64,000 nucleotides of DNA, from positions 64,001 to 128,000 of IMG/VR virus record IMGVR_UViG_3300014204_013734. The stretch is one strand, 5' to 3'. Under the pieces are notes generated by a model, which saw only the letters and a list, made by a program, of their open reading frames with translations, ran no database searches and had not been told where the DNA came from. A program made the translations under genes and the position numbers. How positions within the stretch are numbered: the first letter of the stretch is position 1; each line of letters starts with the position of its first letter. The DNA comes from a virus (taxonomy: Duplodnaviria; Caudoviricetes). Below are positions 15,303 through 22,788 of the stretch, in pieces.

Positions 15303-15379
15303 TGGTACGTCCGGCCAGGCTCGAACTGGCGATCCCCGGCTTCGGAGGCCGGTGCTCTATCCATCTGAGCTACGGACGC
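15303..15379 (-). tRNA. tRNA-Arg(CCG)
   Basis: CCGGC-CU-CCG-AA-GCCGG; T-loop UUCGAGC; ends ACCA. Confidence 0.93.
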
Positions 15380-15870
15380 GGAAATTTTGCCATCAAGGCT
15401 TTGGCCACGGGGTCTGGCACAAACTGCTGAAAGGGTCCCCCAAGGGCGGCAAGTTCCTTGACCATGGACGACGAAACTTCGGACACGGCCGGATCCGTAA
15501 CCAGCATGACCGTTTCAATGGAGGGCTTAATCCGTCGGTTGATAGAAGCCAAAGAAAACTCGACGGGAAAATCCTGAACGGGACGAAGCCCGCGGATCAT
15601 GGCACAAGCCCCAAGTTCGGCGGCAAAGTCAACCAGAAGCTTTCCTTCAGGTAAAGCTTCCAGACGCACCTTGGATGAAAACCCAACCGGGAGTGATTGT
15701 TGGATCAAGTCCAACCTTTCTTCCAAAGTGAAGGTCGCTTTCTTGGCGGAATTCTGTGCAATCACTACTACCAACCTATCAAAAAGTTCCGCTGCCCTGC
15801 TGATGATGTCCAAGTGGCCATTCGTGATCGGGTCAAAAGACCCTGCATAAATTGCAACACGTTCGGTCAT
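15370..15870 (-). CDS. coaD: phosphopantetheine adenylyltransferase
   Basis: AIYAGSFDPITNGHLDII, FTLEERL, IRGLR..DF..E, ETV, VSSSMVKELA. Confidence 0.93.
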   Translation of the reverse strand: MTERVAIYAGSFDPITNGHLDIISRAAELFDRLVVVIAQNSAKKATFTLEERLDLIQQSLPVGFSSKVRLEALPEGKLLVDFAAELGACAMIRGLRPVQDFPVEFSLASINRRIKPSIETVMLVTDPAVSEVSSSMVKELAALGGPFQQFVPDPVAKALMAKFPRP

Positions 15871-16022
15871 GAAGTGCCTCCTTGAAAGGACATACCCTTT
15901 TTCGGGGTAACTTGTTGAAGATGGCTTCATCTTCTTGTCTAAACTACCCGAAGCCCTCCAGTTCCAAGCCGTAAAATTCATGGTTTGGAAAACCATGACC
16001 CTTTTTTGAGGAGCTTTTGTCC

Positions 16023-17246
16023 ATGGCTTTGAAAAAGATCCCGGCCATACCCGCTGATTCCGCTTTGACCAAAGCCCTTAATTTGAAGGAAGCATCAGGA
16101 AAGGAAAAATGGGACTTTTCTTTCATTGATCTATTCGCGGGTATCGGAGGGTTCCGACTGGCCTTGGAATCCCTCGGCGGAAACTGCGTGTTTTCGTCGG
16201 AATGGGACAAGCAATCCCAGGACACCTACGAAAGGAACCACGGGGAACGACCTCAAGGGGACATCACGAAAATCGACCCGTTTTCCATCCCCGACCACGA
16301 CATCCTGACGGGCGGTTTCCCGTGCCAGACATTCTCCCTTGCCGGAATAACCAGATTGTCAAGTTTGGGCAGGGAACATGGCATGAGGGACACAACGAAG
16401 GGAACCTTATTTGGGTACACGAAGGAAATCATTACCGCAAAGCGTCCGAAGATGTTCATCCTAGAAAACGTCAAGAACCTAAAATTCCATGACGAAGGCA
16501 GGACCTTCAGGACCATCGTGGAACACCTACAGGGCCTGGACTATGAAGTGTCCTCTTCAATCCAAACTAGCGTCTGGTGGGTCCCGCAACACCGGGAACG
16601 TATGTTTATCGTAGGGTTTGATCTCCAACGGTTTGATCCGAAATCGGTTCAGGAAAACTGGGCCTTCCCCGACCCGCCGAAATTGGTAGATGGTCGATTA
16701 CCTGTGATGAAGGATATTATGGAAAAGAATCCGGATGAACGCTACCGGTTGACTGATCTTCAGTGGAGCACTCTTCAGAATCGTTTCAAGGGACACCAGA
16801 AAGGATCCTCAAAGCCCTGGGGATTCAGCTACGATTTGAATTCCGAAGAAACAATTGCCAAGACATTGATGGCAGACATTAAAGGAGGGTCCGCCCTGCT
16901 CATTCAAGACGACCCAACCAAAAATCCACGGAGACCAACCCCAAGAGAATGCGCCCGATTGATGGGATTTCCTGATACTTTTCAAACATTGCAAGCACAA
17001 AGACTTGTACAGAAACAGTTCGGAAACGCCGTCGTTCCCCCTCTGATCCGCCACATTGCTACGGCAATGCTGCGTGCTACAGACAACTTTCTGCCTAACC
17101 TCAATCCGATGCCAAAGGACACCATCCTAAACGTGCAAGTTGTAGCCCCGGAAAAGAAGACTGGAAAGAATAGGAAAATAGTACAAAAAGAACCGGAAGT
17201 CTGTTGTGGGTTGGAACAGTTGTTCAATGAAGATCAGAAAACCTGA
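16023..17246 (+). CDS. C5-cytosine DNA methyltransferase
   Basis: FIDLFAGIGGF, GDI, GGFPCQ, ENV, PQHRER, RECARLMGFP, QFGNAVV. Confidence 0.93.
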   Translation: MALKKIPAIPADSALTKALNLKEASGKEKWDFSFIDLFAGIGGFRLALESLGGNCVFSSEWDKQSQDTYERNHGERPQGDITKIDPFSIPDHDILTGGFPCQTFSLAGITRLSSLGREHGMRDTTKGTLFGYTKEIITAKRPKMFILENVKNLKFHDEGRTFRTIVEHLQGLDYEVSSSIQTSVWWVPQHRERMFIVGFDLQRFDPKSVQENWAFPDPPKLVDGRLPVMKDIMEKNPDERYRLTDLQWSTLQNRFKGHQKGSSKPWGFSYDLNSEETIAKTLMADIKGGSALLIQDDPTKNPRRPTPRECARLMGFPDTFQTLQAQRLVQKQFGNAVVPPLIRHIATAMLRATDNFLPNLNPMPKDTILNVQVVAPEKKTGKNRKIVQKEPEVCCGLEQLFNEDQKT

Positions 17247-17970: not shown

Positions 17971-18762
17971 TCAATGCAGAAAAGGTTTCCCAATCAAATC
18001 CGCCGGACCTTCCAGTTGGGGGACCTGATTGAAGTGGTTTTTCTTCAAGGCAGCCCGAACTTCTGTGATCACCTGGGAGGTTGGTTTTTCCAACCCGTCT
18101 GGCCGAAGCAGGGCATCCAGAAGGAATCGGGTCAAAGCCCCGTTTGGACGCTTCTTGAACACGGCATCCGCTGCGGTTTGGTCTGCCCGGCAACCTGAAA
18201 TCAAGGCAATGTTAGGGACATCCAAGGGATTCTTTTCCAACCCTTTGGATCGGACACCTTCAAAACGCCACCTGATGTCAAGCGGGGGAATGAGACGGCG
18301 CGGTTTGGACCCGCCAAATCCGGCCATGTCCCGGTCCAACCCTCCGCTGTGGCAGGAATCGGAAATCCACCATGCGGCAACACCAGGAGGGACCCGTTTG
18401 AAGATGGTGTTGAATTCCTTGTCCCGAATCATGTTGGAATCGGACCAATCAAAATTTTGACAACATACCACTTCGTCAAGTCCGTCAACTTCACCTTTCT
18501 TGTCCCGGGTCGGAACTTGAGCTCCATGTCCGCTGTACTGGAATAGGATGCGGTCACCAGGCTTCAACCCGTCAACAAGCCAGAAGAGTCGGTTCTTGAT
18601 TGTCGTAGCAGTGGCCCTGGAATCCGTCAAGAGACGGACAGCCGCCGGATCAAAGCCGCATTTCCCTGTGATGAACAACGCCATATCTTCAACATCGTTG
18701 AGACATCCGGCGAGCGGGGCTTCAGGATACGAATTTATTCCAACCAAGAGTGCCTTGTCCAT
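17971..18762 (-). CDS. metacaspase / caspase-family protease (peptidase C14)
   Basis: ALLVGINSY...LAGCLND, YSGHG (His), SDSCHSG (Cys), SGCRADQTAAD, GALT, QVPQL. Confidence 0.92.
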   Translation of the reverse strand: MDKALLVGINSYPEAPLAGCLNDVEDMALFITGKCGFDPAAVRLLTDSRATATTIKNRLFWLVDGLKPGDRILFQYSGHGAQVPTRDKKGEVDGLDEVVCCQNFDWSDSNMIRDKEFNTIFKRVPPGVAAWWISDSCHSGGLDRDMAGFGGSKPRRLIPPLDIRWRFEGVRSKGLEKNPLDVPNIALISGCRADQTAADAVFKKRPNGALTRFLLDALLRPDGLEKPTSQVITEVRAALKKNHFNQVPQLEGPADLIGKPFLH

Positions 18763-19159: not shown

Positions 19160-19837
19160 ATGATCCCACTGTTTACTCAAGAAGAATTTGATTCTGTGAA
19201 GTCCCGGCAAAAGTTACCCCTTCAATGTAAGCATTGTGGGAAAACCTTCCACAGAACCAAACATGATATTCAAATTGGTAACATAAGAAGAGGAACTATG
19301 GATTTTTGCAGCATTTCTTGTACATCCCGATATCATGCCGCTGGTCATCGTCTTAGTTTGACTTGTGAACAGTGTGGAAACCATTTCAGCAAGATTTTAT
19401 CTCAAGTCAAGGTAACAAAACATCATTTCTGTTCCAAATCCTGTGCGGCCAAGTATCGGAATTCTCACAAAACTACAGGTTTCCGTAGGTCAAAGTTAGA
19501 AGCTTGGTTGGAAACCCAACTAACATCCCTTCATCCTGAATTAGAATTTCATTTCAACAGGAAAGACACTATTGATTCCGAATTGGATATTTACATCCCT
19601 TCCCTTAAGTTGGCTTTTGAACTAAATGGGATTTTCCACTTTGAACCTATTTTTGGAACCCACAAGTTGAATCAAATCCAATCCAACGATCAAAGGAAAT
19701 TTTTGGCTTGCGCTGAAAGAGGAATCAGCCTTTGTATTTTGGATGTTTCTCACATCAAGTATTTTAAAGATAGGACTTCCAAACCCTTCCTTGACATTAT
19801 TGAACGTATTATTTCCCAAGTAAGGGCAGGACAGTAA
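19160..19837 (+). CDS. free-standing putative homing endonuclease (Zn-ribbon repeats + Vsr/DUF559-like PD-(D/E)XK domain), copy 1
   Basis: CKHCGK..FCSISC, CEQCG..FCSKSC, ELDIYIPSLKLAFELNGIFH, NDQRK..C...GI.L. Confidence 0.75.
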   Translation: MIPLFTQEEFDSVKSRQKLPLQCKHCGKTFHRTKHDIQIGNIRRGTMDFCSISCTSRYHAAGHRLSLTCEQCGNHFSKILSQVKVTKHHFCSKSCAAKYRNSHKTTGFRRSKLEAWLETQLTSLHPELEFHFNRKDTIDSELDIYIPSLKLAFELNGIFHFEPIFGTHKLNQIQSNDQRKFLACAERGISLCILDVSHIKYFKDRTSKPFLDIIERIISQVRAGQ

Positions 19838-21198: not shown

Positions 21199-21888
21199 AT
21201 GATTCCCTTGTTTACGCAAGAAGAATTTGAATCCACAAAATCCCGGCAATTACTGCCCCTGAGGTGTAAGCATTGTGGGAAAACTTTTCACAGCGAAAAA
21301 TGTGATATCCAAAGAGGACTTCTGAAACACAGTTCAAAAACCAAAGATTTTTGTAGTCTCTCCTGTTTGGGGGAACACCGATCCATAGGGCGTCGTCTTA
21401 GCTTGACTTGTGAACAGTGTGGAAAACCTGTCAGTAAAAGGCCATCTGAAATTAAGCAATCTAAGCATTATTTCTGTTCCAGTTCGTGTTCCGCAAAATA
21501 CCATAATTCCAGAAAACATACAGGTTACCGGAGATCAAAATTGGAAGTTTGGCTGGAAACCCAACTAATTTCCCTTCATCCTGATTTGGAAATCCATTTT
21601 AACCGAAAGGATACCATTAATTCCGAACTGGATATTTTTATCCCTTCCTTAAAACTGGCTTTTGAACTAAATGGAATCTTTCATTATGAACCCATCTTTG
21701 GAGCTAAACAATTTGGAAGAATTCAATCCAACGACAACCGGAAAATTCTTGCCTGTGCTGAAAAAGAAATTAGCCTTTGTATTTTGGATGTTTCTCACAT
21801 CAAGTATTTTAAAGATAGGACTTCTAAACCCTTCTTAGATATCATTGAACGGATTATTTCCCAAGCGATTAGCCCTGAAACCCCTTGA
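21199..21888 (+). CDS. free-standing putative homing endonuclease, copy 2
   Basis: Close paralogue of 19160-19837 (MIPLFTQEEF...ILDVSHIKYFKDRTSKPFLDIIERIISQ). Confidence 0.75.
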   Translation: MIPLFTQEEFESTKSRQLLPLRCKHCGKTFHSEKCDIQRGLLKHSSKTKDFCSLSCLGEHRSIGRRLSLTCEQCGKPVSKRPSEIKQSKHYFCSSSCSAKYHNSRKHTGYRRSKLEVWLETQLISLHPDLEIHFNRKDTINSELDIFIPSLKLAFELNGIFHYEPIFGAKQFGRIQSNDNRKILACAEKEISLCILDVSHIKYFKDRTSKPFLDIIERIISQAISPETP

Positions 21889-22394: not shown

Positions 22395-22477
22395 TGGGAA
22401 CGGAGGGGGTCGAACCCTCACGGCTGTTAACCACTGGTTCCTGAAACCAGTGCGGCTCCCAGTTACGCCACGTTCCC
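22395..22477 (-). tRNA. tRNA-Leu(CAG), no encoded CCA
   Basis: Acceptor GGGAACG/CGUUCCC + A73; CUGGU-UU-CAG-GA-ACCAG. Confidence 0.9.
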
Positions 22478-22504
22478 GTAAAAAAACGTTGTTTCACTAT
22501 TCGG

Positions 22505-22517
22505 TTGTCAAAGAATC
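22505..22517 (-). promoter_or_regulatory. boxA-like antitermination site
   Basis: GATTCTTTGACAA about 27 nt before the first tRNA; resembles the rrn boxA (TGCTCTTTAACA). Confidence 0.55.
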
Positions 22518-22521
22518 CCGG

Positions 22522-22561
22522 AAAACTAAAAACCCCTCACGGCTTTCACCGGAGGGGTTTT
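22522..22561 (-). terminator. intrinsic terminator (attenuator) in the tRNA-array leader
   Basis: AAAACCCCUC-CGG-UGAAAG-CCG-U-GAGGGGUUUUU-AGUUUU. Confidence 0.85.
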
Positions 22562-22582
22562 CGTTGGGAGAAACATCATAGT

Positions 22583-22711
22583 TTACTGTTTCAACGTGAA
22601 CCCTCGGTGCCGGTTTAACGACCAGCTCGTAAGCTGGAAGGACAGATACAACCGGCCTGTAAAGGCCGTGTCTGTCAAACTGGCAGTAAAGGTAACTTCT
22701 AAATCGTCCAT
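22583..22711 (-). CDS. 42-aa leader peptide of the tRNA array (putative attenuator uORF)
   Basis: MDDLEVTFTASLTDTAFTGRLYLSFQLTSWSLNRHRGFTLKQ*; RBS GGAGG at 22717-22721; below the ORF-track cutoff; codons match the array anticodons. Confidence 0.85.
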   Translation of the reverse strand: MDDLEVTFTASLTDTAFTGRLYLSFQLTSWSLNRHRGFTLKQ

Positions 22712-22759
22712 GCGTTCCTCCAAAAACCCCTTACCCACATCTTTGTGGGTGACTCTTTC

Positions 22760-22788
22760 TTTTTACCCAGCTTCCTAAAAAATGTCAA
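22760..22788 (-). promoter_or_regulatory. sigma70-type promoter of the leader/tRNA array
   Basis: TTGACA - 17 nt - (GGG)TAAAAA, with an A/T-rich UP-like tract upstream. Confidence 0.7.

Follow-up and report, generated by a model that had tools for sequence, protein, structure and literature searches.

In enterobacterial amino-acid operons, the multivalent trpL, hisL, leuL, thrL, ilvL (ilvGMEDA), and pheL leader-peptide attenuators have a common design. Each has a short open reading frame (ORF) close to the promoter, with a Shine-Dalgarno (SD) sequence and with regulatory codons upstream of a segment 2. Pairing of segment 2 with segment 3 (the 2:3 antiterminator) excludes the 3:4 intrinsic terminator and its U tract. 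In pheL, a ribosome at the stop codon favors termination (PMC3082878). We analyzed a leader with the same parts in the DNA of a giant (huge) phage; the analyzed stretch, referred to here as the window, comprises 64,000 nucleotides (nt) and corresponds to bases 64001-128000 of the 381-kb virus record IMGVR_UViG_3300014204_013734. The leader precedes an array of 14 tRNA genes on the minus strand. Judging from its sequence, it is probably a ribosome-mediated leader-peptide attenuator that gates the phage tRNA array, with an rrn-type boxA site next to it. The phage would then probably make the array tRNAs only when the matching codons are read slowly.

The phage leader differs from the trpL class in its target and in its sensor. 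The genes downstream are 14 tRNAs and a few interspersed ORFs, not biosynthetic-enzyme or synthetase genes. Its sensor consists of about 14 codon types with one or few codons of each, whereas trpL-class leaders have a run of one or two amino acids. It is also a phage element followed by a boxA, and phage leaders of this type mostly lack a conserved 1:2 anti-antiterminator. Attenuation in response to tRNA supply occurs at Escherichia coli pheST (pheM leader), where it controls a component of the translation apparatus. At pheST, one tRNA species (Phe) is sensed and a synthetase is controlled, whereas the phage leader controls tRNA genes. An attenuator at the E. coli tRNA-Phe gene pheV was considered and rejected, because in K-12 the pheV promoter immediately precedes the tRNA and there is no leader ORF or attenuator.

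T-box leaders are also terminator/antiterminator switches that respond to tRNA status. They differ from the phage leader in that each binds a single uncharged tRNA directly and works without translation, and the phage leader has no T-box match in Rfam. A T-box or any other known leader family was ruled out; at the Rfam gathering threshold only tRNAs were matched in the window, and at E values up to 10 the further matches were to unrelated families at chance level. The rrn antitermination site consists of boxB, boxA, and boxC, and it is read by NusB/NusE, NusA, and NusG, as well as SuhB. The phage locus resembles it in its boxA sequence, which is the same, and in the position of the boxA at the head of a transcript that is long, untranslated, and structured. 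It differs in that the boxA precedes phage tRNA genes and lies downstream of a regulated terminator, that no boxC motif was identified around it, and that the role of Nus factors is putative. The locus would thus combine classical attenuation and rrn antitermination on a new target with a multiplexed codon panel.

The phage genome contains 35 tRNA genes, which are split over two clusters. The plus-strand cluster has 21 tRNAs and is located at genome 49211-59189, just upstream of the window; the minus-strand cluster, referred to as the array, has 14 tRNAs (window 22477-15208). The sequence recurs without differences in independent assemblies, namely a 444-kb ENA contig and two Logan assemblies. 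The leader occupies the 390-nt gap between tRNA-Leu(CAG) and a divergent protein gene. An earlier reading of this DNA, made from the sequence alone, had placed a set of attenuator elements here, and all of them were found on the minus strand where that sequence-only reading had located them. The order on this strand is promoter, 5' stem-loop, SD, ORF, terminator with U tract, boxA-like site, U7 run, and tRNA. The features of the leader (window coordinates) are as follows.

22760..22788, minus strand: sigma70-type promoter, read directly from the sequence (TTGACA 22788-22783, 17-nt spacer, TAAAAA 22765-22760, A/T-rich stretch upstream)
22733..22751, minus strand: 5' stem-loop CACCCACAAAGAUGUGGGU at the transcript start, from folds
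22709..22734, minus strand: 5' untranslated region (UTR), SD, and AUG (segment 0), with GGAGG at 22721-22717, 5 nt ahead of the ATG at 22711
22583..22711, minus strand: leader ORF of 42 codons, MDDLEVTFTASLTDTAFTGRLYLSFQLTSWSLNRHRGFTLKQ, with stop codon TAA at 22585-22583
22622..22637, minus strand: hairpin within the ORF, CCAGCUUACGAGCUGG, codons 26-31, a candidate RNA polymerase pause hairpin
22592..22612, minus strand: segment 2, CGGCACCGAGGGUUCACGUUG, 5' strand of the antiterminator, codons 34-40, from folding and the cognate-duplex test
22540..22566, minus strand: segment 3, CAACGAAAACCCCUCCGGUGAAAGCCG, 3' strand of the antiterminator and also 5' arm plus loop of the terminator, from folding and the cognate-duplex test
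22522..22561, minus strand: intrinsic terminator, AAAACCCCUCCGG-UGAAAG-CCGUGAGGGGUUUU and UAGUUUU, from folding (tail UUUUUAGUUUU; U tract 22529-22522)
22497..22516, minus strand: boxA-like site, AUUCUUUGACAACCGAAUAG, from motif comparison (core motif AUUCUUUGACAA at 22516-22505)
22395..22477, minus strand: tRNA-Leu(CAG), first of the 14 array tRNAs, from ARAGORN and Rfam

Alternative pairing in the phage leader and its relatives

Attenuators depend on two helices that compete for one strand. In this phage, the terminator folded alone has an energy of -21.8 to -23.9 kcal/mol, with a stem of 14 base pairs (bp), one bulge, and a loop of 4 nt as folded (6 nt with the top U:G open). Leader codons 34-40 had been proposed to pair with the segment that forms the 5' arm and loop of this terminator. 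When codons 32-42 through the terminator loop were folded with the 3' arm omitted, the 2:3 helix was the local minimum-energy fold, and it returned the proposed helices (CACCG:CGGUG, GGGUU:AACCC, and CGUUG:CAACG). Its energy of -24.0 kcal/mol is equal in strength to that of the terminator (-23.9 kcal/mol). Shuffling of the upstream part gave an equally good fold in 1 of 200 cases (z -3.2), and segment 2 is the top partner of segment 3 when all 21-nt windows of the leader are compared. The entire leader is unusually structured (z -5.6, 0/200 shuffles). Segment 0 (5' UTR/SD 22734-22709) can also pair with the terminator 5' arm, through the anti-SD-like UUUCUCC and AAAACCCC (-27.8 kcal/mol).

Comparison with related phages is useful for judging whether such pairings are maintained. 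Relatives were located via the divergent neighbor gene and a nearby phage Cpn60 gene, and nine huge-phage contigs were obtained (L008 and L011-L018); together with this phage they provide the ten leaders compared below. The Cpn60 proteins of the relatives are 47-65% identical to that of this phage where measured. A search based on the Cpn60 alignment added one more family member (L141), and its remaining matches were mostly distant GroEL-like proteins. Searches of IMG/VR with single proteins found no relatives, and distant blastn against GenBank phages gave matches through tRNA-Leu only. L007, which is a more distant relative, lacks a leader, and just 123 nt separate a tRNA from the gene there. 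The leader family is specific to Cpn60-encoding huge phages from landfill/groundwater runs and other metagenome assemblies. One of the relatives also carries a tmRNA gene between the Leu and Thr tRNAs of its array (L008:4569-4929, minus strand; tag peptide ATAPVAMAA).

The nine relatives have a minus-strand tRNA cluster beside the same gene block, and a homologous leader is present in 9/9. The leader ORF is open in all ten leaders; it has 29-34 codons in the relatives and 42 in this phage, and 14-27 nt separate its stop codon from the terminator. In 9/10 leaders, a promoter that fits TTGAC(A/T)-N16-18-TAnnnN is located 36-82 nt upstream of the leader ATG, and a terminator with a U tract is found at the equivalent place in 10/10. 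The peptides of the relatives have a high content of Leu, Ser, Thr, Phe, Trp, Tyr, and Arg, and they share LTSW(S/Y)L as a conserved core. The 2:3 versus 3:4 geometry suggested by the sequence-only reading recurs in the ten homologous leaders, with segment 2 in the last approximately eight codons by the stop and co-varying with the terminator 5' arm. When the last 16 codons through the terminator loop were folded, the terminator 5' arm paired near the stop in 10/10 leaders. The paired positions range from -37 to +6 relative to the stop overall and lie at about -25 to 0 in most, with z -2.3 to -6.1 against shuffles.

Segment 3 differs among the relatives (for example, AAAUCCUUCGG, AAACCCCCUCCGG, and AAGCCCUCCCCGG), and each segment 2 tracks its own partner. 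Co-variation was tested without an alignment by calculating duplex energies of each segment 2 with each segment 3 in the ten leaders, with 20000 permutations. Cognate segment 2:segment 3 duplexes had a mean of -26.3 kcal/mol compared to -19.2 kcal/mol for non-cognate duplexes, and 0/20000 permutations were as good; the cognate segment 3 was the best partner in 7/10 rows. The two terminator arms (segment 3:segment 4) behaved similarly, with -23.8 kcal/mol for cognate and -16.4 kcal/mol for non-cognate duplexes (0/20000). As a negative control, 5' UTR:segment 3 duplexes in the ten leaders had no cognate preference (-11.5 compared to -11.9 kcal/mol, p 0.66). This pairing was therefore rejected as a family feature, and because the control lacks cognate preference, the pairing of segment 0 with segment 3 is a peculiarity of this phage or due to chance.

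Segment 2 lies within a coding region, and its conservation could reflect the RNA or the peptide. In the relatives it encodes Pro-Glu-Val (CCG GAG GUG). In this phage, CCGAGGG is read in another frame as His-Arg-Gly; because the sequence is kept in a different frame, segment 2 is under selection as RNA and not as peptide.

The ribosome-free state of an attenuator determines what happens when the leader is not translated. The antiterminator (segment 2 with segment 3) is the predicted ribosome-free state in 7-8 of the ten leaders. Because of this default, the system may be ON unless efficient translation turns the tRNAs off. A conserved 1:2 anti-antiterminator that competes for segment 2 is absent from most relatives. 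Just upstream of segment 2, hairpins in the nine relatives beat most shuffles (fraction as stable 0.003-0.043); in this phage, the corresponding window does not stand out from shuffles (fraction 0.25). We infer a pausing role for the in-ORF hairpin.

Structured leaders can also act by binding a protein or an RNA directly. A riboswitch-like leader of this type (e.g., a T-box-like direct tRNA sensor), in which the ORF would be untranslated, could account for the strong structure of the leader (z -5.6) and for the weak SD sequences of several relatives. Under this explanation, an ORF that is open in 10/10 leaders and ends 14-27 nt before the terminator is unexpected, and one specifier could not explain 14 codon types. 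No Rfam family matched the leader, and the best non-tRNA E values were above 3. We consider this explanation very improbable.

Putative sensor codons and the leader of the second cluster

In classical attenuators, the codons of the leader ORF correspond to the product of the regulated genes. Here, the leader codons cover 14/14 of the anticodons encoded downstream (simulated p 7e-4), and 26/41 leader codons are codons read by the array (simulated p ~1e-5); the simulation used the phage's own codon usage. Among 894 ORFs of 35-55 codons in the six frames of the genome, the leader ORF ranks first for its match to the array. In each relative, at most one of the anticodons seen in the retrieved part of the array (9-16 per phage) lacks a codon in the leader. 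The codon GAG occurs in the ORF body only in the three phages that have tRNA-Glu(CUC) in the array.

The position of these codons within the ORF is also important. Over the ten leaders, array-read codons make up 174/243 codons in the ORF body, whereas the last eight codons are at background level with 23/80. Sensor codons are thus concentrated upstream of segment 2, which is the placement needed if a stalled ribosome is to free segment 2.

The 21-tRNA cluster (His, Asn, Pro x3, Lys, Glu, Ile, Met, Ala, and others) has a leader of its own upstream of the window, at genome 48789-49211 (L019:790-1212). Its ORF (L019 860-1006) has 48 codons, MESVGTTFGGRKPNGGHTAIVNPAVASAERDPNSFPHVDGDDPGVPGM, with SD GAGGAAAA, and covers 18/20 of the anticodons of its own cluster. 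This ORF is rich in Gly/Pro/Val/Ala/Asn. Matches of each leader to the other cluster are depleted (6/47 and 10/41 codons), and the division of Ser and Arg codons over the two leaders mirrors that of the corresponding tRNAs over the two clusters. The two leaders have in common a promoter block, a pre-SD block, and the boxA. Pairing is possible between the end of the second ORF, GUUCCUGGC, and the 5' arm of a strong hairpin lacking a U tract. On the 3' side of this hairpin are a second hairpin, the boxA, and a terminator-like hairpin with UUUUCUAUU directly before tRNA-His. Similar arms recur in this leader at the ORF end, in hairpin 1, and in hairpin 2. A 22-codon ORF overlaps the second leader ORF in another frame, and it has the CAA and ATA codons that are missing from the main frame.

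A leader may respond to translation in general and not to particular tRNAs. In such a general gate on translation capacity, the switch would open whenever translation is slowed or lost, for example through host shut-off, ribosome shortage, or stress, and the leader codons would reflect common descent or composition. The ribosome-free antiterminator predicted in 7-8/10 leaders is consistent with it, since an untranslated leader would read through by default, as is the lack of a conserved anti-antiterminator competing for segment 2 in most relatives. The codon match is too specific for this explanation, with 14/14 anticodons covered, Ser and Arg codons split across two leaders, and GAG only in company with tRNA-Glu(CUC). 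A gate of this general type is unlikely.

Small membrane peptides can resemble the leader peptide, and the leader ORF could be an ordinary small gene. In that case the small hydrophobic peptide would have its own terminator, the tRNAs would be expressed by leaky read-through or from another start, and the 2:3 pairing would have no regulatory role. The composition of the peptide (Leu, Ser, Thr, Phe, Trp, and Tyr) with its conserved LTSW(S/Y)L core agrees with this, and the terminator is thermodynamically dominant. Co-variation of segment 2 with the terminator arm, and its retention as RNA in a different frame in this phage, argue against it. The second leader encodes a Gly/Pro/Val/Ala/Asn-rich peptide that matches its own, different tRNA set, and array-read codons are enriched in the ORF body and not in the last eight codons. 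Another start is also not apparent, with nothing promoter-like listed by the promoter scan in the interval from the terminator to the tRNA. We regard the small-gene explanation as highly unlikely.

The boxA-like site

In bacteria, the rrn boxA classically sits just upstream of 16S and 23S genes. In the phage, the motif TTTGACAACNGAATAG has only two occurrences in 381 kb, one ahead of each tRNA cluster, at 27 and about 65 nt before the first tRNA. A boxA-like motif ahead of the first tRNA is present in 9/10 leaders, and the relatives retain CTTTGACAA(C/T)TGAATA amid otherwise divergent sequence. The phage motif matches TCTTTGACAAYTGAATAG at 17/18 positions. A scan for TCTTTGACAAYTGAATAG in 185,579 species genomes gave at least 120 loci, compared to approximately 35 expected by chance by our estimate. 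At least 61 of the 125 bacterial occurrences listed are at rrn operons, at distances of 34-310 nt upstream of the 16S or 23S start; at least 28 are 52-305 nt upstream of the 16S start, at least 32 are 34-307 nt upstream of the 23S start, and at least one is just after the 16S end. The taxa with these matches include Acidobacteriota, Nitrospirota, delta-proteobacterial lineages, Bdellovibrio, Planctomycetota, Rhizobiales, and others. The boxA call of the sequence-only reading is supported by its recurrence in the relatives, by the two genome copies at the cluster heads, and by a consensus match before 16S/23S in many bacterial phyla. The published boxA consensus, GYTCTTTAANA, is gamma-proteobacterial (PMC5725501). 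Compared to this consensus, ATTCTTTGACA matches at 9/11 positions (PMC5725501), and the main difference between the scanned rrn motif and the consensus is at one position (A to G).

The surroundings of the boxA vary. Upstream of it in this copy is the terminator hairpin only; a separate hairpin precedes the boxA in the second cluster and in several relatives, and it is boxB-like in some. Between the boxA and the first tRNA, the relatives have a strong hairpin that is not present in this copy. The TTGACA within the boxA was considered as a promoter and rejected, as, by our inspection of the sequences, no -10 element is located at 16-18 nt in most relatives (L013 has a weak AGTAAT), and the promoter scan lists nothing at this site.

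Similar motifs were found in a few other contigs. An exact motif scan of viral contigs located the boxA-like string in one unrelated 41-kb IMG/VR phage. In this phage, the string TTCTTTGACAACTGAATAGGGCAACAAC (L002:866-890 and L003:7208-7232) has nearly the same boxA plus extension; it is intergenic and upstream of a gene, with no tRNAs nearby. A 1.2-Mb contig of a Bryobacterales metagenome-assembled genome (MAG) has a tRNA array of Trp, Asp, Met, Lys, Arg x4, Glu, Val, and Ile (L084:3696-4180, reverse strand of the locus). This array is preceded by a 21-codon ORF, MVRGSREWKDACASGESPLAE, with a moderate codon match (about 8/20). Its intrinsic terminator has a 5' arm able to pair with the end of this ORF (CCGGGG:CCCCGG), and 14 nt before the first tRNA there is an exact boxA of the rrn type. 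In an Acidimicrobiales MAG (L064) and in L139, a terminator and a boxA are followed by Gly/Thr tRNAs, and there is no obvious matching ORF. These three loci could be prophages or mis-binned phage contigs.

Proposed mechanism and neighboring genes

Transcription of the array would be decided in the leader by the speed of translation. Host RNA polymerase would start at the sigma70-type promoter, and a ribosome would load at GGAGG and translate the 42-codon leader. With fast decoding, the ribosome would reach the stop codon and cover most of segment 2, segments 3 and 4 would pair, and transcription would terminate at the U tract (22529-22522). Shortage of any of the sampled tRNAs would cause a stall upstream, which would allow segment 2 to capture segment 3 and the polymerase to read on. 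Only read-through transcripts would carry the boxA, because it is downstream of the terminator. There, the boxA may recruit host NusB/NusE and other Nus factors, and the Nus-modified polymerase would resist Rho and later hairpins across the array, which is approximately 7 kb long, highly structured, and for the most part untranslated. Overall, the tRNA supply would be under negative feedback.

Several results weigh against this mechanism or complicate it. Four array-read codons are inside segment 2 of this phage (CGG34, UUC38, ACG39, and UUG40), and a stall there would favor termination. The second leader is built differently, with the hairpin beside its ORF lacking a U tract and a terminator-like hairpin following the boxA. 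The SD sequences of several relatives are weak, and the ten leaders are homologous and do not represent ten independent inventions. Among the runs listed with the leader DNA, none is an RNA run; the holders are landfill and groundwater DNA metagenomes. A column-wise count on the MAFFT and covariance model (CM) alignment was weak, with 63% of cells paired (reached by 16/500 shuffles) and a covariation score that 102/500 shuffles reached. We attribute this to register shifts of the homologues in G- and C-runs, which MAFFT and CM do not resolve; per-sequence folds and cognate/non-cognate duplexes were used instead for this reason.

Folding of the complete leader is also less simple than two alternative helices. 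In the ribosome-free folds of this phage, until the 3' arm is made, the 5' UTR is the partner of segment 3 and codons 7-13 are the partner of segment 2, which makes its scheme more complex than 2:3 versus 3:4. Masking by a ribosome leaves the terminator favored and does not discriminate between models. In these partition-function folds, the ribosome was modeled as a 30-nt masked footprint at each codon; with the 3' arm present, the terminator has P ~1 at every modeled position in this phage. Over the family, the equilibrium P(terminator) is at least 0.8 in 9/10 leaders once the 3' arm exists. Equilibrium folds always favor the terminator, and the putative switch therefore depends on kinetics that lie outside the model. 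The decision between the helices would be kinetic, as in classical attenuators.

Why phages carry tRNAs, and when these are expressed, is still debated, and we know of little on how phage tRNA expression is controlled. Phage tRNAs can rescue infection from tRNA-cleaving host defenses (PMC10264068, PMC11555353). In this context, the leader may be a multiplexed sensor of tRNA loss that polls, codon by codon, every tRNA the array can replace, forming an on-demand counter-defense circuit; this more specific claim is tentative, and we rate its chance as slightly below even. A shortfall could arise from anticodon nucleases or other tRNA-targeting defenses, from phage-induced decay of host RNA, or from codon-usage mismatch, and it would stall the ribosome and form the antiterminator. 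The boxA-modified, termination-resistant polymerase would then transcribe a replacement tRNA set. The second, complementary leader would serve the other 21 tRNAs.

In full-text literature searches, no description was found of leader-peptide attenuation of tRNA genes (phage or bacterial), and no paper on boxA at tRNA operons. A circuit of counter-defense against tRNA loss that joins two mechanisms of the host, attenuation and rrn antitermination, is not described in the literature searched. If the attenuator operates as proposed, the leader would be a direct feedback controller of tRNA supply that reads the decoding speed of the codons served downstream, and it would be the first trp-type attenuation of tRNA genes found in that literature. 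Coupling to the boxA would illustrate a way for a phage to have a long, untranslated RNA operon transcribed by host polymerase. Ten natural variants with co-varying helices are available in the family, and the leader could find use as a compact and programmable device for sensing translation speed at particular codons.

Read on the plus strand (window 22731-22752), the 5' stem-loop of the leader transcript also counts as a terminator-like site in the scan, where the hairpin is followed by CTCTTTCTTT. It might stop antisense transcription leaving the array.

Protein-coding ORFs are located among the array tRNAs. Two are on the tRNA strand and encode a pantetheine-phosphate-adenylyltransferase-like protein (15370-15996) and a caspase-like Peptidase_C14 protein (17971-18762, Pfam match). 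A Dcm-type DNA methylase (16017-17246) is encoded on the strand opposite to the array. Two paralogous plus-strand ORFs are antisense in the array, at 19160-19837 (225 aa, amino acids) and 21199-21888 (229 aa); both have Cys-rich N-termini, and a faint zf-FCS match was the only one obtained. Because the relatives have PDDEXK_5 nuclease genes at comparable positions in their arrays, the arrangement suggests that the antisense ORFs between the tRNA genes are mobile or homing-type insertions.

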